A DNA stretch of 64,000 bases from a virus: IMG/VR virus record IMGVR_UViG_3300037153_000606; one strand, 5' to 3'. This document shows, piece after piece, positions 568 to 60,251 of this stretch. Each line of letters opens with the position of its first letter. Position 1 is the first letter of the stretch. The notes under the pieces were generated by a model, which ran no database searches, was not told where the DNA came from, and saw nothing but the letters and a program-made list of their open reading frames with translations. The position numbers were made by a program, and so were the translations under genes.

Positions 568-650
568 CAACTCACGTTCTACAACTCATCTTGCGCCATG
601 GTGTATAATGGTGCTGTACGTTTCATCAACTACTTGAGGAGCCACACTCA
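564..650 (+). promoter_or_regulatory. AT-rich promoter/operator region: TTGACA (564), TATAAT (604), two ACAACTCA boxes (567, 581), GAGGAGCCA RBS
   Basis: Motifs read directly; the TTGACA-TATAAT spacing is non-canonical, so the exact promoter is uncertain. Confidence 0.6.
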
Positions 651-5918: not shown

Positions 5919-7529
5919 ATGGTCCCGCAGCAGCGGGACGTTCTGAACTATGACGCCACGTCGGTCTCCAACGCGTCTTTCAGCATCCCGCTACCTTCCA
6001 CCGTCACCGGCACCGACGGGGACGGCAACCCGATCTACACGATCACCATCCAGCCCGATGACTGGGGCATCGTGCTGGTGGTCTGGTCGGCGGTCAGTGG
6101 TTCCCCGCTCGCCGGGCTGAGCACCTCCTGGCAGGTGCTGCAACCGCCGACGGTGGCCAACCAGGTGTGTTTCGCGGTGCTGGCACGCCAATTCGTCGAT
6201 GGCGACACGGTCGTCGACATCGAGCTGACCGACAGCAGGTTCCTGCTCGCGGTCGGTATCTGGTACTCCGGCGCGGACCGGGTTGACACAGTGGGACAGC
6301 CGGGGATCAACCCGAGCGCGGTGCTGCAGACCTCGACCGCGCCGTCGATGGTCGCCTCTGGCGCGTCCGACGAGCTGGGCCTGTCGCTGTTCGTCTCGGC
6401 GATGCGGTCCGTGCCGCCGGTGGTGCAGGTCAGCCAGGGCACCGTGGTAGTCGGCAGGACCGGCAATCCGAACACGGTGCTCGGCCTGATCGCCGCCGGG
6501 CCGCTCTCAGGACCCGGGCCCACCGGGGACGTCATCGCCACCTACGACACAGGCGCACAGTCCCGCGCCGGGATCCAGCTCGGCCTGCTGACGCTCGGCG
6601 GGCAGATCGCCGGGACCGCCAGCTTCGGGACCCAGGTGACCCTCGCGGCCACCGGCGTCCCGGCACGGCCTACCGACGCCGCATTCGCTGTTGCGGTCGC
6701 ACTGGCCGTCACCGGCCTATCCGGTAGTCAGGCCGCGTTCACCCCGACGGTCGTACTCAGCGCAGTGGGGCGACCGATCGTCCCGATCAACCTCAACCCG
6801 GTCGTCAACCTGAGCACCGTCGGGCAGATACGCGGCTTCGCCACGAAGACCATGACCATCGGGCTGGCCACCATCGGCTCGCCCCACTTCACCGGCACGC
6901 CCGCGTTCAACCCGAGGGTCGTCCTCGCCGCCACCGGGGTGAAGAAGGTCAGCGGCATGATCGGCCTCGGCCCCACCGTGACACTCTCCACGCGGGGTCG
7001 GGCGCTGACCTGGGCACGTCCCGGTTTCACCGTCACCGTCCGGCTGGCGGCACTGGGCACCCCGACCATTCCCGGCACCGCCCATTTCCGGCCCGGCGTC
7101 ACGTTGTTCACCCGGCGCAACGGGGTCTTCATCCTCGGCACGGCGGGCTGGGGGCCGTTGGTCACACTGCGCGCCGCCGGTGTGTTGATGGCCACCTCCG
7201 GCAGTGCGGACTTCACCCCCGAGATCACTCTGACCGCCGACGGCACTCCGGACTTCACACCGGTCGGGGAAGTCGATTTCGGACTGCGGGTGACACTGGC
7301 CGCCGACGGGTTCTCGCTGCCGCGCGGCCCGGTGGGTGTCACCATCAAACCGGTGCTGCAGGAACCGGATCCGGACTGGCACGGGCGGCCCAAGGACGAG
7401 TACGACTGGCGGGTGGACCTGCCGGTCGGCACGGCCGGGTTCGATACTGAGGTCACCCTGATCGCCGAAGGCGGCGAGCTGCTCGGCGCGACCCAGCACG
7501 CCGCGCACACGTGGAGCGTGGACGAATGA
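5919..7529 (+). CDS. virion fibre/whisker-like protein with ~20-aa beta repeats
   Basis: About 12 copies of F.P.VTL.A.G-like units in the C-terminal half. Confidence 0.7.
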   Translation: MVPQQRDVLNYDATSVSNASFSIPLPSTVTGTDGDGNPIYTITIQPDDWGIVLVVWSAVSGSPLAGLSTSWQVLQPPTVANQVCFAVLARQFVDGDTVVDIELTDSRFLLAVGIWYSGADRVDTVGQPGINPSAVLQTSTAPSMVASGASDELGLSLFVSAMRSVPPVVQVSQGTVVVGRTGNPNTVLGLIAAGPLSGPGPTGDVIATYDTGAQSRAGIQLGLLTLGGQIAGTASFGTQVTLAATGVPARPTDAAFAVAVALAVTGLSGSQAAFTPTVVLSAVGRPIVPINLNPVVNLSTVGQIRGFATKTMTIGLATIGSPHFTGTPAFNPRVVLAATGVKKVSGMIGLGPTVTLSTRGRALTWARPGFTVTVRLAALGTPTIPGTAHFRPGVTLFTRRNGVFILGTAGWGPLVTLRAAGVLMATSGSADFTPEITLTADGTPDFTPVGEVDFGLRVTLAADGFSLPRGPVGVTIKPVLQEPDPDWHGRPKDEYDWRVDLPVGTAGFDTEVTLIAEGGELLGATQHAAHTWSVDE

Positions 7530-42026: not shown

Positions 42027-43118
42027 ATGGAACACTTCACAGAACTGGCACGGATGCCGCGCAGCAAGGTCGATTGGCTCTGGCGACCTTACATCCCAGC
42101 TCGGCGATTGACGATCATCGAAGGTCATCCGGGCGAGATGAAATCGACACTGACTCTTGATCTTGCGGCTCGGGTCACCCGAGGGATACGGATGCCCGAC
42201 GACACGTCGGGACCCGAGGCGACCAATGTTGTGGTCATCTCGGCCGAGGACGATCCGGGCGACACCATCCGGCCTCGATTCGAGGCTGCCGGTGGTGACG
42301 TTGCCCGGGTGTCGGTGCTCGACCCGAATGCCGAACAACTGTTGTCCTTCCCCGAGGACTCGGCCGTGTTGGAACAGTTCGTGGTGGACCACGAGGTCGG
42401 GCTGGTGATCCTGGACCCTCTCAATGCCTTTCTCGGGGATGGAGTCGGCACCAACTCCGACCACTCAGTGCGTCGCGCCCTACTGCCGCTCGCCCGGATG
42501 GCGACCCGTACCGGCGTGACGATCGTCGTGATCAGACATTTGACCAAGGCAAAAACGGAAGATCCACGCCTTCGTGGCCAGGGATCGATCGCGTTCACCG
42601 GCGCGGTGCGTTCGGGCTTGCTGGTGGCGACAAGGCCGGAAGAACCGGAGGTGCACTATCTGGCGGCGGTCAAGCACTCACTGACCGCACGGCCACCGAC
42701 ATTGATGTTCCGGGCCGCCGAGGTGCCGAAGCTGGATACCGTCAAGATCACCTGGGTGGGCCCGGCGATCGACGTCACCGCCGCCGACCTGTTGACTCCG
42801 GCAGGCAAAGGATCTGACTCGCCCACCATGCAGTGCGCAGTGGCGTTGCGTGGCTACCTGACGCAACGGCACGGACACGCACCTGCCAAGGAAGTGGGCG
42901 ACGAAATGGCCCGCCTCGGGTTCAGTGCCGGAGTGGTGCGGCGTGCCAAGGAAGGGCTGGGGATCGAGTCCAAGCGGCAGCGGTGGGGCCAAGGCGGGAC
43001 CTGGGAGTGGCACTTGAACACGGAGCGGACGCTAGCCGTGGTCGCCCCCATAGATGCCATAGATGTACCACCGACACCTATGGCACCTATGAACGGCGAG
43101 GACGGAGAGCCCAAGTAG
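42027..43118 (+). CDS. AAA_25 / RepA-like ATPase-helicase
   Basis: VDWLWRPYIP..LTIIEGHPGEMKSTL..SAEDD..IRPR..LVILDP..IRHLTK..GSIAF; start could be 41994. Confidence 0.88.
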   Translation: MEHFTELARMPRSKVDWLWRPYIPARRLTIIEGHPGEMKSTLTLDLAARVTRGIRMPDDTSGPEATNVVVISAEDDPGDTIRPRFEAAGGDVARVSVLDPNAEQLLSFPEDSAVLEQFVVDHEVGLVILDPLNAFLGDGVGTNSDHSVRRALLPLARMATRTGVTIVVIRHLTKAKTEDPRLRGQGSIAFTGAVRSGLLVATRPEEPEVHYLAAVKHSLTARPPTLMFRAAEVPKLDTVKITWVGPAIDVTAADLLTPAGKGSDSPTMQCAVALRGYLTQRHGHAPAKEVGDEMARLGFSAGVVRRAKEGLGIESKRQRWGQGGTWEWHLNTERTLAVVAPIDAIDVPPTPMAPMNGEDGEPK

Positions 43119-43144
43119 ACAACTCACAAAATGGCACGTACACT
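43116..43144 (+). promoter_or_regulatory. SigA-like promoter TAGACA-N17-TACACT with an ACAACTCAC box over the -35
   Basis: Canonical 17-bp spacing in an AT-rich gap. Confidence 0.65.
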
Positions 43145-43194
43145 TAGACCTACACACTCAACTACGTACCACGTACTACGAAGGAGCCATCACC

Positions 43195-43359
43195 ATGTAC
43201 GCATCTTCCGCCCAGCGCCCGGCCAACGGTCACGGCTGGGGCCAGTCCTCGCCGTATTCGCCACCCCCGGCGAACGGCAACGGGTGGCACAGTAACTCCC
43301 GTCCCACCACGATGCCTCCGGCCGACGGTCGCGGATGGGGCCGCCCGAACGGCCGCTGA
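43195..43359 (+). CDS. 54-aa peptide with three PA(N/D)GxGW repeats (absent from the ORF track)
   Basis: AAGGAGCCA RBS, upstream promoter, synonymous variation between repeats. Confidence 0.75.
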   Translation: MYASSAQRPANGHGWGQSSPYSPPPANGNGWHSNSRPTTMPPADGRGWGRPNGR

Positions 43360-43397
43360 ACCACACGACTGACCACGAACCGAGGAGCCACCGCACC

Positions 43398-45419
43398 ATG
43401 ACCTGGATCGATGCCGAAGAAGCGTTCGCCGCGCACTTCGACCGTTACGAACCGCGTGTGCCGCAACGCCAGTTGGCGCAGCGCATCGAGGCCGCGTTGG
43501 CCGAGGGCGTCAACCTGATGGCCGAAGCGCCGACCGGTACCGGTAAGTCGTACGCCGGGCTGGTGCCTGCGATCGATTTCGCTGTCGCGGCCCGCCGTCC
43601 GATCTGCGCCGCCACCGGTACGAAGGCGCTGCAGGATCAGTACATCCTCGATCTCGAAGCACTCAAGGCGATGTACTACCCGGACCTCAAGTTCGTGATC
43701 ATCAAGGGGCGCGGCAACTATCTGTGCCGGGCAAAGTTGGCCGAGATCGAGAAGGGCAAGTCCCCCGCCCCTCTGGGGATCGAGATGGACACCCTGCTGT
43801 CCGCCGCAGAGGTTGACGGCGTCAACGGCGACCTGGACCGGATGGGCCTGACCCTGCAGCCCCGCGAGCGCATGGCGCTGACCGCGACGGCTGACGAGTG
43901 CCCCGGCAAGAACTCCTGCCCGTTCGGCAACGTCTGCTTCGCCGAGCGGGTCAAGGCCAAGGCCGCCGAGGCCAATGTAGTGGTCGCCAACCACGCGCTG
44001 GTCGCGGTCGACGCTGTCTTGAAGGCGCAAGGCATCGAGATGCTGCCGCCGTTCTCGGCGATGATCATCGACGAGGCGCACGAGTTCGAGGGGTACGTGT
44101 CCAACGCGCTCGGCACCTCGATCACCGAGCGGGCGCTGACCGACCTGGCCGCCCGGGTCGTCGACTTCACCGGGGACCGCGAGTCGCTCGGCAAGGCCAA
44201 CGTCAGCGCCAAGCTGCTCTTCGACAAGCTGCGCTTCATCTTGCGCCAGTCCGAGCGGCCCAACGAGACCACCGTGGCGATCACCCCGGCGCTGCTACTG
44301 CAGCTGGAGTCCGAGTTGGGTTCGGTGCTGCGCATGCTGGCGCACTTCGAGGGCAAGCTGGCCATGACCGAGGCGTTCACCGACGAGGACGTGATCAAGC
44401 GCCGCCGCCTGCGCAAGCGGGTCACCTCGATGACCGACAAGGTCAAGGCGATCGTGCTGGCCGACTTCGCCGACATGGTCCGCTGGATCGAGGTCGAGTC
44501 CAAGGAGCGTTACGACGGCTCTACCGTCGAGCGGCTCTCCCTGGAGCAGGCCCCGCTGGACGTCGCGCCGTTCCTGGCCCAGGCGCTCTGGCCGTGGCAG
44601 CCCAACGTGCTGATGTCCGCGACGCTGTCCATCGGCGGCGACTTCTCCTACCTCGCCGGGCGGCTCGGGCTGACCGGGCTCAACCCGGACCTGCCGACAC
44701 TGCAGACCTTCCGCTGCCCGACCCCGTTCGACTACCAGAAGCAGTCGGTGACATACGTGCCGCACGACATGCCGCACCCGGTCAAGGAGCAGGCCGCGTT
44801 CCGCTCAGCGGTCAACCTGCACATGGCCGAGCTGGTGCGCGCCTCCGACGGGCGGGCGCTGCTGCTGTTCACCTCCAAGGCCGGTCTGGAGTCGGCCCAC
44901 CGCGCCCTCAAGCCGGTCATCGAGCAGATGGGGCACCGGGTGCTCAAGCAGTACGACGCGCCGACCCGGATGCTGGCCGAGCAGTTCAAGGCCGACGAGC
45001 ACAGCGTGCTGTTCGCGACCAAGTCGTTCTTCACCGGGATGGACATTCAGGGTGACGCGCTGCGGCTGCTGGTGGTCGACAAGCTGCCCTTCCCGGTGCC
45101 TTCGGTGCTGTTCAAAGCACAGTGCGACGCCATCGACGCCAGGGCGGGCGGCAGCTTCAACCAGGGCTCGTTTATGACCCGGCAGGTGCCGGAGATGCAG
45201 ATCACCCTGACCCAGGCGATCGGCCGCCTGATCCGGTCCACTTCCGACCGGGGCTTGGCCGTGGTGCTGGATCCGCGCCTGCACATCATGCCGTCCTACG
45301 GAAAGCGCACTCTCAAGGCGTTGCAGACCACGTTTCCGTCGCCGTTGGTCACCGAGCTGGGCGAGGCGATCGCCTACCTGCGCTCGCTGGAGCCGCAGAT
45401 CGAGGAGGTGCCGGTATGA
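43398..45419 (+). CDS. dinG: DinG/YoaA-family Fe-S DNA helicase
   Basis: Q motif PR.PQ, EAPTGTGKS, KGRGNYLC..C..C..C, DEAH, MSATL, LFTS, KLPFP, QAIGRLIR. Confidence 0.95.
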   Translation: MTWIDAEEAFAAHFDRYEPRVPQRQLAQRIEAALAEGVNLMAEAPTGTGKSYAGLVPAIDFAVAARRPICAATGTKALQDQYILDLEALKAMYYPDLKFVIIKGRGNYLCRAKLAEIEKGKSPAPLGIEMDTLLSAAEVDGVNGDLDRMGLTLQPRERMALTATADECPGKNSCPFGNVCFAERVKAKAAEANVVVANHALVAVDAVLKAQGIEMLPPFSAMIIDEAHEFEGYVSNALGTSITERALTDLAARVVDFTGDRESLGKANVSAKLLFDKLRFILRQSERPNETTVAITPALLLQLESELGSVLRMLAHFEGKLAMTEAFTDEDVIKRRRLRKRVTSMTDKVKAIVLADFADMVRWIEVESKERYDGSTVERLSLEQAPLDVAPFLAQALWPWQPNVLMSATLSIGGDFSYLAGRLGLTGLNPDLPTLQTFRCPTPFDYQKQSVTYVPHDMPHPVKEQAAFRSAVNLHMAELVRASDGRALLLFTSKAGLESAHRALKPVIEQMGHRVLKQYDAPTRMLAEQFKADEHSVLFATKSFFTGMDIQGDALRLLVVDKLPFPVPSVLFKAQCDAIDARAGGSFNQGSFMTRQVPEMQITLTQAIGRLIRSTSDRGLAVVLDPRLHIMPSYGKRTLKALQTTFPSPLVTELGEAIAYLRSLEPQIEEVPV

Positions 45420-45715: not shown

Positions 45716-45974
45716 CCCGGTGGCGACGCTGACCGCGCTCGCGGAGCGCTACCGCAAGCTCGCTGCGATGCACAATGCACCGCGCAATTCGGCAAGAGAA
45801 TGGATCGCCCTGGCCGAGCACATCGACGGCGTGATCGGGTGGTGCCAGGACCGCGACGATCTGGACCGGAGCGCGCAGTTCGTGGTTGACGACATGATCC
45901 AGGGACTGCTGGCCGTTGCGGAAGCACTGAAACTCTCTAACGAACCACACTCACTGAATCAGGGGGAACCGTAA
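45708..45974 (+). CDS. hypothetical protein, tandem paralogue B
   Basis: Same three blocks as paralogue A. Confidence 0.75.
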   Translation: MSDPVATLTALAERYRKLAAMHNAPRNSAREWIALAEHIDGVIGWCQDRDDLDRSAQFVVDDMIQGLLAVAEALKLSNEPHSLNQGEP

Positions 45975-46462
45975 TGCTCGCCAAACCCGACACGCCGTTG
46001 GTCAGGATGTTCCAGGGACTGTCTTGTCTAGTGGACAAGTGCAAGTACCCGCCCACCGCGTTGATCACCACCATGTGCCAGGAGGGACATCTGCGCCATG
46101 GCCCGATCTGTAACAAGCACCGTTGCGAAGAAAGGCTGAACTGCGCTGCCTGCCAGAAGAAGGATAAGAAGTCCACGCTGTTCGGCGAGCCACTGCCGCC
46201 CAAGCCGGACTTCGTGATCACCGGTCCTCCGATGGGCAAGCGCAGGCCGAACATGGCTCGGCCCACCACGCTGCACAAGTTGCACTGCAGCGAGGAACCG
46301 CGTGCCGGAGCACTCACGGAATGGAGTCGCTGGAAGGTGCCCGAGACAGAAATTGAGTTCACCGACAACAAGGCAATCTGGGACAAGACATTCACATTGC
46401 GGTTGTGCCGCAAGTGCAACCCGCGTCCGATGCACGGCCCACTGCTGGCTTACGCATCGTGA
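45974..46462 (+). CDS. Cys-rich putative zinc-binding protein
   Basis: TAATG overlap; multiple C/H pairs (CQEGH, CNKH, CAAC, CRKC). Confidence 0.7.
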   Translation: MLAKPDTPLVRMFQGLSCLVDKCKYPPTALITTMCQEGHLRHGPICNKHRCEERLNCAACQKKDKKSTLFGEPLPPKPDFVITGPPMGKRRPNMARPTTLHKLHCSEEPRAGALTEWSRWKVPETEIEFTDNKAIWDKTFTLRLCRKCNPRPMHGPLLAYAS

Positions 46463-46469
46463 CAAGACC

Positions 46470-46569
46470 TGCCGGACGGTCGAGGTAGGGTGGCTCCCCT
46501 CCTGTTCGGCACTGCGACAGGCCCCGGTGGTTCGAGGTAGGTGGCTCCTCCCTCACCACCGGGGCCTGT
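46470..46569 (+). ncRNA. twin-hairpin element with a conserved TCGAGGTAGG(G)TGGCTCC apex; candidate sRNA or cis-regulator
   Basis: Two hairpins with unrelated outer stems and the same apical module. Confidence 0.6.
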
Positions 46570-46611: not shown

Positions 46612-46914
46612 ATGTCCCGAGCCGCGATCGTGCTGTGGATCCGCGACGCCGACGAGGAGGAGGACGACCAGAACCGGTTCGCCGAGATCATCGCCGCGAT
46701 CAAGGAGAGGTTCCCCGAGGTGCACCGGGGATACATCACCCTCCGCCCCGAGACACTGGGAGTCCTGGACCGGATGTACGACGGGGAGATCGAACCGGAG
46801 GTCCCGTACTGCGGCTACCCCCGTTTCGATATGGCCCAGTGCGGGCTGCTGCCCGGCCATTCCGGTGGGCACGGGCGGTGGCAGGTCCCGCCGACGCCGA
46901 ACCATTCATCCTGA
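46612..46914 (+). CDS. hypothetical protein (100 aa)
   Basis: AAGGGGG RBS; codon bias. Confidence 0.7.
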   Translation: MSRAAIVLWIRDADEEEDDQNRFAEIIAAIKERFPEVHRGYITLRPETLGVLDRMYDGEIEPEVPYCGYPRFDMAQCGLLPGHSGGHGRWQVPPTPNHSS

Positions 46915-46974
46915 CTTTGTCGGTGCCCTCCGCTACCATCGGCGCAACGTCCCGACTTACGAAGGAGCACTCAC

Positions 46975-47676
46975 ATGACCCTGATCCCGCAGCCCTCGCT
47001 GGAGGATCTCGCCGCCACCGGCAAGATCACTCTCGGCGAGCTGATGGACGCCCTGGCCGCCCAGAACGCCGAGGGCAAGCCGACCGACACACTTCCGCCG
47101 CCGACCCCGGCGCGGATCTCCATCTCCGACGACCAGCGGATCCTGATGCGCCGTCTGGCCGTGCAGTTGGCTGAGCTGGCATTGCCGGACTCGCCGCGCG
47201 AGCTGACCGAGACCGAGCGGCAGGAGTTCATCCCGATCTGGGCCGACGTCAAGTCGGCCAAGGATGCAGTGGTCAACGCCGAGACCGCGCTGCGCGAGTC
47301 GTTCGCGAACCACATGGACGCCGAGGCCCGGCGCACCGCGCCCGAGGATGCGGCGCTCCCCATCGACGGGCACGGCCACGTGTTGCGCGAGGGCGAGGTG
47401 ACCGCCGACGGCGTCTCCCAGCGAGTCACCCGCGAACTGCGCGGCGGCAAGGCCAACCCGCTGTCGCTCCTGGACCTGCAACACCTGGAATCCAATGGCG
47501 AGATCGACCACCGCACCTTTCTGGCGATGACCGAGGCGGTGCCCGCCACCCGCCGGGTGGACGAGGCCAAGATCATGGACCTGTTGGCCAAGCGGCCCGA
47601 GCTGGTGCAGACCCTGGCCAGCGTGGCGACCCTGAGCGACAAGAGCGCCTCCTACTACCTCCGCAAGGTCAAGTAG
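46975..47676 (+). CDS. hypothetical protein
   Basis: AAGGAG RBS; strong codon bias. Confidence 0.8.
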   Translation: MTLIPQPSLEDLAATGKITLGELMDALAAQNAEGKPTDTLPPPTPARISISDDQRILMRRLAVQLAELALPDSPRELTETERQEFIPIWADVKSAKDAVVNAETALRESFANHMDAEARRTAPEDAALPIDGHGHVLREGEVTADGVSQRVTRELRGGKANPLSLLDLQHLESNGEIDHRTFLAMTEAVPATRRVDEAKIMDLLAKRPELVQTLASVATLSDKSASYYLRKVK

Positions 47677-59500: not shown

Positions 59501-60251
59501 CCGCAAGGGCAGCGCGAACATGGGGGTGGTGAAGAAGTTGGTCGCGATCGGCGCGTTCGACTCGCTGCACCCGAACCGCCGCGCCCTGGAAGCCCGCCTC
59601 ATCGACGACACCACCGGGGTCACCGAACGGTGCGTCAACCTCTCCGACGGCACCCTCAACGAGCACAATCTGCCGTGCGTCTTCGACTGGTCCAGCGAGC
59701 CGCTCAAGATCGGACGCACCGGCAAGGTGCTGAAGAACCAGCTCAAGCCGCCGAAGAAGTGCACCAAGGCGTGCCGCCACTACACCCCGCGCGGGCCGGT
59801 GGACTACGCGCACCTGCCCAACTACACCCCCGAGCAGATCCGCGACCGGGAGATCGAGATGCTCGGGGTGTACCTGTCCTCGTCCCCGTTCGACGCGGTG
59901 CCGCAGCACGTGATGGCCGAGATGTACACCGGCGAGGACCTCACCCTCGCAGCCAACGGGGTCTACCCGGCGGTGGCGATGATCACCGGGTTCCGGCCGG
60001 ATCCGAAGGGGCGCGACTTCGGCTTCGCCAGTTTCACCACCCCGGCCGGTGACCTGTCCACAATCGTCTTCGCTCGGCAGTGGGCCGACATCCGGTCCAA
60101 GCTGCGCAAGGGCGCGATGTGCTTCATCGTCGTCGTCAAGACCGGCGACGACCGGTACCGGCTGGAGTCCCTGGACCTGGTCCGGCGGTTCACCGAGGAG
60201 GAGCTACATGACCGGCAAGCCGAGAAAGTCCTCGACGGCGGCGCTGGATAG
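56553..60251 (+). CDS. dnaE: DNA polymerase III alpha subunit
   Basis: FVHLHTHSEFS.LDG, AITDHG, GPGRGS, PDFDIDF, HAAG, KFDFL, VFQ, YQE, YSFNRAHA; start 56553 or 56493. Confidence 0.97.
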   Translation: MAYRLIQHFGLARSVHGDAPCPAVFEDEEGARVLLVEDLVPVTVWSEAVKLGARGLFRITDAGAVFAPADRFAEYRTVAQYGANYTLADRHWGSPGPVGEPVRVMAERWANRSVGSNPFVHLHTHSEFSPLDGLSTMAEIGAAVVADGQSAVAITDHGTCAGHPALQEMSTEFGIKPIFGIEAYFTDDRHAREDPHDYRHLVLYAKDEQGLKNLWGLSTESYRDGFYGKPRIDWDSLTRWREGLICSTACLRGPLGHPFGNGDETRAVANLGRLGDIFGEDLYIELHTNHLPAQVAANNWLVEVARKYSVPVIAAVDSHYPLAEQRVDHKVWLGVTTSSDVVTDDSDLFAGEQDYHLMSADEVRTALGYLGEVAERAVLGTGELAARCTAEITPQVAKPVFSKHTPDHPDPVQHDAERFVDAALHNFDNRITARGLDPHPYLDRIRYEGPLLIDKGYCGYYLITADFVNWAKDHGILVGPGRGSGAASLFAYLMKITEIDPIEGDLNLDRFMTKGRKSLPDFDIDFPSSRADEVIEYVQQRWGREHVARVGSHIRLQNKGAFKGVQIALASRLPSESYGWVETINKLVDAAEASTAGLGLNWDELMDQIGEALIPFRDRMPELFRYAEMFHGRLRTYGKHAAGFIIDPDADLEAELPMRNSGDGGPMVTQFDMDALEYLGKVKFDFLQLRTLDTVQGTIDLIRAETGRSVNPYDWHEEFDDPQVYEELGEGWTMGVFQIETALGTRTTKAIKPQTRSQLADVITIGRPGPLRSGLDRVYLRRRNGEEPVELPDPRLKPILAKTQGCMLYQEDIMAICTALAGYDADEADHVRKILGKKKVELVDAEGRKFVERSVKNGTDENVAVTIWAQMAEFARYSFNRAHAYSYATISLWEAWLKTHYVRQFLSVAMTTVKKERIPQFVTEVRRLGYSVLPPDINDSKAYFAATELVIRYGFASVNGIGEAATTAILAGQPYTSYEDFLARKGSANMGVVKKLVAIGAFDSLHPNRRALEARLIDDTTGVTERCVNLSDGTLNEHNLPCVFDWSSEPLKIGRTGKVLKNQLKPPKKCTKACRHYTPRGPVDYAHLPNYTPEQIRDREIEMLGVYLSSSPFDAVPQHVMAEMYTGEDLTLAANGVYPAVAMITGFRPDPKGRDFGFASFTTPAGDLSTIVFARQWADIRSKLRKGAMCFIVVVKTGDDRYRLESLDLVRRFTEEELHDRQAEKVLDGGAG

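Follow-up and report, generated by a model that had tools for sequence, protein, structure and literature searches.

Paralogous hairpins with a shared tip in the gap behind the DinG gene block of a soil actinophage

The first gap behind the DinG helicase gene block of an uncultured soil actinophage holds two adjacent hairpins, H1 and H2, which on the evidence of their alignment are paralogous copies of a single duplicated hairpin. At a probability of roughly 0.4, we read the pair as a cis-acting transcript-boundary element, acting as an attenuator or as a stabiliser of the 3' end, a function that we infer from the two structures, their duplication, the compensatory changes between them and their plus-strand polarity. 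An antisense action of the hairpin tips on a class of ribosome-binding sites (RBSs) is also possible, and the antisense link to these sites makes a reasonable, testable hypothesis; the two readings are not mutually exclusive.

The hairpin pair and its setting

The window analyzed here, a stretch of 64,000 nt from IMG/VR record IMGVR_UViG_3300037153_000606, is a phage genome segment of 66% GC in which almost all genes run rightward. A soil-metagenome contig of about 150 kb represents the same phage, with 3 of 12,633 overlapping positions differing, and a DNA search of INPHARED returned no relative. The replication module encodes a DinG-type helicase, an Lsr2-like protein, a 5'-3' exonuclease, DnaB, the PolIII alpha subunit and RecA. 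Behind a promoter candidate and a 54-aa gene, the genes between 43398 and 46462 abut or overlap, so that the 149-nt gap occupied by H1 and H2, between two orphan genes, is the first to follow the compact DinG block (Table 1). Neither flanking protein has a relative in INPHARED or IMG/VR, and DNA and protein searches with the flanking genes against INPHARED, IMG/VR, a set of 5.8 billion proteins and metagenome contigs yielded just identical copies or helicases at about 30% identity. The upstream orphan contains ten cysteines, including two CxxC pairs, and has a GC3 of 0.79 against about 0.9 in its neighbours; it may be a recently acquired zinc-binding protein, and an Atlas look-up of it gave no lead. 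Elsewhere in the window, the ORF at 5919-7529 had no phage match. An 18-nt imperfect inverted repeat (43049-43091), a doubled CATAGATG-like unit, lies within the 3'-terminal part of the AAA_25 gene, just 5' of the promoter candidate, and looks like an operator.

Table 1. Positions in the window of the hairpins, the complementary ribosome-binding sites, the neighbouring genes and the promoter candidate
Feature	Coordinates	Strand	Description
Hairpin H1	46470-46511	+	10-bp outer stem with two G.U pairs, 5' UC bulge, apical module, UGGCU loop; thermodynamically weak
Hairpin H2	46517-46569	+	Perfect 15-bp outer stem, UC bulge and apical module as in H1, UGGCU loop; no U-tract 3'
Apical module of H1	46480-46501	+	Reverse complement includes the exact 10-mer GGGAGCCACC
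Apical module of H2	46532-46554	+	21/23 identical to the H1 module; 46540-46550 is the reverse complement of the DinG RBS
DinG-like helicase RBS, extended	43382-43392	+	Gene start at 43398; complements the H2 tip exactly over 11 nt; the extended duplex runs as far as the AUG
54-aa gene RBS	43182-43189	+	AGGAGCCA; gene 43195-43359, the first after the promoter-like site
DUF2786 gene RBS	636-645	+	Gene 650-1537; 10-nt complement of the H2 tip
Upstream gene	45974-46462	+	162-aa Cys-rich orphan; final gene of the overlapping DinG block; GC3 0.79
Downstream gene	46612-46914	+	100-aa orphan; starts 42 nt past H2; no evident promoter of its own
Promoter candidate, sigma-70-like	43116-43144	+	Heads the 54-aa gene-DinG block; -35 region plus 5 nt repeated at 564-574, 5' of the DUF2786 gene

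Both hairpins are present where the preliminary description had placed them, and the perfect outer stem that it gave for H2 is confirmed. H2 folds at -48.7 kcal/mol, with a pair probability of 1.00 in all three sequence contexts. For H1 the folding energy is -21.7 kcal/mol on the plus strand and -18.2 kcal/mol on the minus strand, the pair probability of its outer stem ranges from 0.01 to 0.50 with context, and in longer contexts it is often displaced by other pairings, including one between its C-rich side and the RBS of the next gene. The entire gap folds better than shuffled sequence on both strands (z of -3.3 and -4.5). A search of Rfam at permissive and gathering thresholds assigned the element to no family, the best models being microRNAs at 17-20 bits against thresholds of 77-87, and a tRNA/tmRNA search returned nothing. 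A 17-nt pattern of the tip had 7 matches in IMG/VR and at least 120 in species genomes, which we attribute to chance since all those listed lie in a coding context and none of them in a hairpin. No close variants of the twin hairpin were found, and the 7.6 kb past the window held no additional copies of the motif or the hairpin.

The two hairpins align locally with a score of 33, which none of 5000 shuffles reached, and the 22-23 nt of the apical module are identical at 21 of 23 positions, with indels alone and zero substitutions between the copies; the shared tip on which the preliminary description had built is thus real. This module is made up of a UC bulge, a GAGG/CCUC helix, a small internal bulge, a 3-bp helix and the UGGCU loop, and the apical difference previously written as GGG/CCC versus AGG/CCT is equally readable as indels. 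The outer stems had been called unrelated, but this does not hold for their inner 8 bp, which align between H1 and H2, so that the stems are better described as "not wholly unrelated". Five of these eight pairs differ, three by double compensatory changes and two by G.U versus G.C. The G.U pairs exist on the plus strand exclusively, and the two in H1 become A.C mismatches on the minus strand, which disfavours the earlier suggestion of a minus-strand decoy for a translational regulator. In the tip there are 0 substitutions in 21 aligned positions, whereas about half of the homologous stem positions have changed. As read from these two copies, the pattern points to a selected RNA structure, with the helix maintained at the level of the plus-strand RNA and the sequence of the tip additionally constrained; given this constraint, some partner probably reads the tip.

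According to the reading that we prefer, H1 and H2 would fold on the rightward (sense) transcript once the promoter at 43116, the 54-aa gene, the DinG helicase gene and three small genes have been passed. H2, being very stable and without a U-tail, would cause RNA polymerase to pause or partially stop, and/or would block 3' exonucleases or direct processing, and in this way would set both the share of message that continues into the 100-aa gene and the lifetime of the upstream message; H1 would be the weaker paralogue produced by tandem duplication. A boundary of this kind is supported by the position of the gap directly behind abutting and overlapping genes, by the folding of H2 in every context tested, and by the G.U pairs confined to the plus strand together with the double compensatory changes. 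It is also consistent with a scan that found no promoter-like site in the gap or its surroundings on either strand. Similar long GC-rich hairpins without a U-tail occur in other gaps of this phage (3322-3363, 11726-11780, 38658-38716 and 41877-41943); their stems measure 15-25 bp and often enclose a structured inner loop, and their architecture is like that of H2.

Several features count against a boundary function. H2 provides the GC-rich hairpin of a canonical intrinsic terminator, but the U-tract of 7-9 nt that should follow the stem directly is missing, with no T-run 3' of either hairpin, and a terminator scan detected no terminator-like site at H1 or H2. Intrinsic termination by mycobacterial RNA polymerase depends on a U-tract (PMC3993855), so that efficient termination is doubtful in a host resembling mycobacteria, and full termination would silence the downstream 100-aa gene, which has no visible promoter. 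The displacement of H1 by other pairings also speaks against it. A boundary function explains neither why a 22-nt tip is free of substitutions on a stem that is about half diverged nor why the complement of the tip is identical to the RBS motif of this phage group.

The gap also contains a 16-codon ORF that runs exactly from tip to tip, from a GUG in the H1 loop (46490) to a UAG in the H2 tip (46538-46540), and an SD-like GAGG lies 4 nt 5' of its start. Were it a leader peptide, its translation would melt the 5' arm of H2 and permit read-through, making the pair an attenuator of a different kind. We give this idea hardly any credence, given that the SD spacing is short, that the GC3 of the ORF is about 0.69 (hand count) against about 0.9 in real genes of the phage, and that such ORFs are frequent by chance in GC-rich DNA.

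The tip and the GGAGCCA ribosome-binding sites

The preliminary description had linked the tips to a GGAGCCA motif at several RBSs. Such a GGAGCCA(C) class is real, and its conservation extends to relatives: of 48 GGAG-type RBSs counted in this phage and three relatives, 9 carry GGAGCCA, more than any other extension and against a background of 1.4% (binomial p about 2e-8, some of the sites being orthologous). All nine genes start with ATG, 6-10 nt from the GGAG, and are non-structural, and in the window as a whole GGAGCCA is not enriched (8 observed versus 12.9 expected). An 11-nt -35-like cassette, TWGACAACTCA, occurs before two genes of the class, at 564-574 and 43116-43126, preceding them by 86 and 79 nt, respectively, and a perfect TATAAT stands at 604-609. 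By analogy with the combination of ESAS and start-associated sequences (SAS), it looks like a repeated promoter-leader cassette. The leader of a 233-aa gene downstream of the gap (46954-46977) is similar to that of the 54-aa gene, its RBS, GGAGCAC, being the class motif minus one C, and a weak promoter candidate with a -10 of TACCAT lies near it at 46911-46939.

The exact 11-nt complementarity of 46540-46550 to the DinG RBS at 43382 was borne out, as was exact complementarity to the RBS of the 54-aa gene at 43182; the 10-nt match to the DUF2786 RBS is likewise exact but begins at 636, not at 637 as first written. In length alone these matches are unremarkable, since an antisense match of at least 11 nt turns up for 49% of 25-nt segments drawn at random. 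The 100-nt element has six antisense matches of at least 11 nt elsewhere in the window, two of them of 13 nt, and as the tip carries an anti-SD-like CUCC, it is bound to pair to some extent with GGAG-type sites. The 64-kb window has three exact copies of RGGAGCCACC, one at the DinG RBS and one, in inverted orientation, at each tip. For the context of the complementarity we arrive at a rough estimate of p about 0.01-0.04, before allowing for post hoc selection. On these counts from the sequence, the complementarity appears to be no greater than chance by length and borderline by context.

The chance-level match lengths, and the restriction of the element to one lineage, would suit a structural hairpin that was recently duplicated in tandem and has no tip-specific function, its complementarity reflecting SD/anti-SD-like arms plus chance. 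We regard this as very unlikely, as 0 of 21 tip substitutions beside a stem changed at about half of its positions is hard to obtain neutrally.

If the tips do act on the class, they would pair in the sense RNA with GGAGCCACC-class RBSs and either block initiation or trigger cleavage. Within one DinG-block message the 3' end could pair in cis with the two RBSs at the 5' end, or a processed RNA could act in trans on targets that include the DUF2786 gene. We consider such an action unlikely, although it is a serious contender. The duplex predicted between H2 and the DinG site comprises 17 bp at -30.6 kcal/mol and spans the RBS and the start codon, so that the complementarity falls on the translation-initiation region of the target, as is expected of an antisense RNA. 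It lies 3.8 sd below the mean and ranks 6th among 10,615 windows, and the opening costs for this pairing are modest, at about 6 and 5 kcal/mol. The confinement of RGGAGCCACC to the DinG RBS and the two tips, the genuine and conserved RBS class, the duplicated and sequence-constrained tip of a hairpin selected on the plus strand, and the presence of two tips and two class RBSs in one putative operon all argue in the same direction. These points uphold part of the trans-acting antisense RNA put forward in the preliminary description. The remainder of the evidence runs the other way: no promoter of the element itself was found, the match is no longer than chance would give, H2 pairs at five coding sites as well as or better than at the DinG site, and the best duplex partners of H1 are not RBSs. 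Furthermore, the loop is just 5 nt long and most of the seed lies in the stem. Of the 11 matching nucleotides of the H2 tip, 5 are in the loop, and opening the remainder costs 5.9 kcal/mol.

A protein could also be the partner that reads the tip. The identical tips would then form a tandem pair of sites at which an RNA-binding protein of the phage or the host, possibly dimeric, serves nut- or put-like antitermination or represses translation of the next gene, and the likeness to the RBSs would be a coincidence. An identical loop, closing pairs and UC bulge on divergent outer stems form the pattern of sequence-specific tip recognition, and the downstream gene, lacking its own promoter, makes the element one that must be read through. 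We nevertheless judge this quite improbable: no candidate protein was found, the flanking genes being orphans without domains, there are two copies only and these at one site, the pair is not known to have a boxA-like companion, and the RBS match would be left unexplained.

A role at the level of DNA would treat the GGAGCCACC box as a double-strand regulator site that works in either orientation, or the hairpins as structures extruded in ssDNA that signal priming or an origin. The 10-mer at the DinG leader, its two inverted copies at the hairpins, 51 bp apart, and the location of the element within the replication gene module are compatible with this. The G.U pairs and compensatory changes, however, indicate selection on plus-strand RNA, there are two copies only and no AT-rich region, the GC-skew turns elsewhere, near 33 kb, and the motif stands at RBS distance from the ATG in nine genes, all of which makes a DNA-level element extremely unlikely.

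Related phages and the Cluster K start-associated sequences

Homologues of the 233-aa gene, at 42-54% identity, led to three syntenic phage loci, and a profile-guided search for loci with this family in IMG/VR and species genomes gave none. The relatives put the same RBS cassette before DinG, the operon-head gene, a 145-163-aa gene and a 231-aa gene, and carry 2-3 GGAGCCA-class copies per 10-30 kb, against 3 in 71.6 kb of the window phage. No hairpin complementary to the RBS cassette of its own phage was present in about 50 kb from these three relatives (loci L016 and L019 and 30 kb of the L150/L151 phage, the genomes being partly sampled). The co-variation of loop and RBS across related phages, by which the antisense proposal was to be judged, thus leans against it, the RBS motif being kept where the hairpin is absent.

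Long hairpins as such do occur in the relatives, in gaps of the same module, one with a proper U-tail and one with a C-rich anti-SD-like loop, and the syntenic gap of L019 contains a hairpin, then a good promoter, then a GGAGCCA-class RBS; these agree with a boundary function. The hairpin with the C-rich loop (L150 16314-16384) has a 15-bp stem, lies before the PolIII alpha gene of its phage, and is complementary to the class RBS no further than the SD core. Genes for an Acb2/Tad1-like protein (PF24729) and for a protein with an RF-1 domain also lie in the replication module of the related phage (L020 8075-8422; L150 12146-12490). Each phage has different small genes in the slot that separates DinG from the 233-aa gene, from which it follows that the twin hairpin belongs to a lineage-specific accessory insertion. 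A hypervariable slot of this sort, with flanking orphans of atypical composition, favours the boundary reading by comparison with moron-type insertions that bring their own terminator. Parts of the region are also represented in contigs of four soil DNA runs, and the single contig that spans the hairpins is identical to the window, so that there is no natural variation for a covariation test.

The GGAGCCA class resembles the SAS of Cluster K mycobacteriophages (PMC3203893), in that an AGGAGCC core, a preference for ATG starts, non-structural genes, an association with promoters and an unknown function are common to both. Each is an extended RBS motif conserved beyond the pairing with 16S rRNA, located a few nucleotides 5' of the start, as seen here for the nine class genes, and often behind promoter cassettes. 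In Cluster K there are even copies with CCA at their end. The window motif, RGGAGCCAC(C), differs from the 13-bp Cluster K consensus by more than the 2 deviations allowed there, sharing the AGGAGCC core only, the phage lineage is unrelated, and the window phage has 3 copies in 71.6 kb versus 11-19 per Cluster K genome.

Cluster K1 phages have one reverse SAS copy away from gene starts (PMC3203893), and for TM4 and Pixie Pope et al. reported no reverse site. In Anaya, 15 of 16 SAS matches are forward, and the sole reverse one (L021 29871-29883) is found in an 11-nt hairpin loop within a strongly structured gap of 385 nt (z of -7.3). Two adjacent hairpins are present there (L021 29800-29915; record 59799-59914), with the reverse SAS in the loop of the second. 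Conservation of the region extends across 133 Cluster K genomes, with six compensatory pairs among eight phages, and non-triplet indels argue against its being coding; none of the Cluster K papers surveyed describes an RNA there. By analogy, Cluster K1 may follow the logic of the proposed antisense action, displaying the reverse SAS in the loop of a conserved, covarying hairpin, and Anaya's lone reverse copy speaks for that proposal. Subcluster K6 (Hammy) speaks against it: its SAS consensus is the usual one but its loop is not, so that loop and SAS pair only via a bulge. The Cluster K parallel is therefore suggestive, with loop and motif not strictly co-varying.

Extended to the window phage, the parallel would make the twin hairpin a phage-encoded anti-RBS RNA module for SAS-like RGGAGCCACC sites that head early operons, a proposal we hold to be doubtful; the module would act first on the pair of class sites carried by the DinG message to which it belongs. 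If the tips do pair with GGAGCCACC sites, SAS-type motifs, which have lacked a known function since 2011, would gain their first proposed RNA partner, and the pairing would be a phage case of operon-internal 3'-to-5' translational feedback. Cluster K phages are cultured and can be engineered, so that the idea is testable in them, though the window phage cannot be grown. If the tips mark a boundary only, an unusual actinophage, itself uncultured, simply carries a pair of ordinary intercistronic hairpins.

Comparison with known systems

Small hairpins also act in the nascent transcripts of other phages, as in the boxB of lambda nut and the adjacent pair of HK022 put, where sequence-specific tips act in cis on elongation. 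The hairpins described here have no sequence or family relation to these and no known binding protein, and they stand at the end of an operon and not at its start. The c4 antisense RNA of phages P1 and P7 is excised from the same operon transcript as its target, as would be the case for H1 and H2 on the DinG message. Two hairpins with loops that pair, with no chaperone, with the purine-rich RBS regions of several targets are known from the 6C sRNA of high-GC Gram-positives (PMC6486639), which is a precedent for an action of the tips on RBSs. Unlike 6C and c4, the element matches no Rfam family, has no promoter of its own, shows a UGGCU loop in place of a C-run, and has its targets upstream, not downstream.

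A second precedent is the icaR mRNA of Staphylococcus aureus (PMC3868564), in which a C-rich anti-SD stretch at the 3' end is complementary to the 5' RBS of the same message. For icaR this pairing was shown experimentally, whereas here there is complementarity alone, over a polycistronic message of about 3.3 kb, and the anti-RBS stretch sits at the tips of hairpins. As a transcript boundary, H1 and H2 are most simply compared with the tail-less, GC-rich "I-shaped" terminator candidates of actinobacteria and their phages, for which it is disputed whether they terminate at all (PMC3993855). A long GC-rich stem-loop placed right after a gene block without a U-tract is common to both, and the phage element differs from these candidates in consisting of two tandem paralogous hairpins with a sequence-conserved tip.
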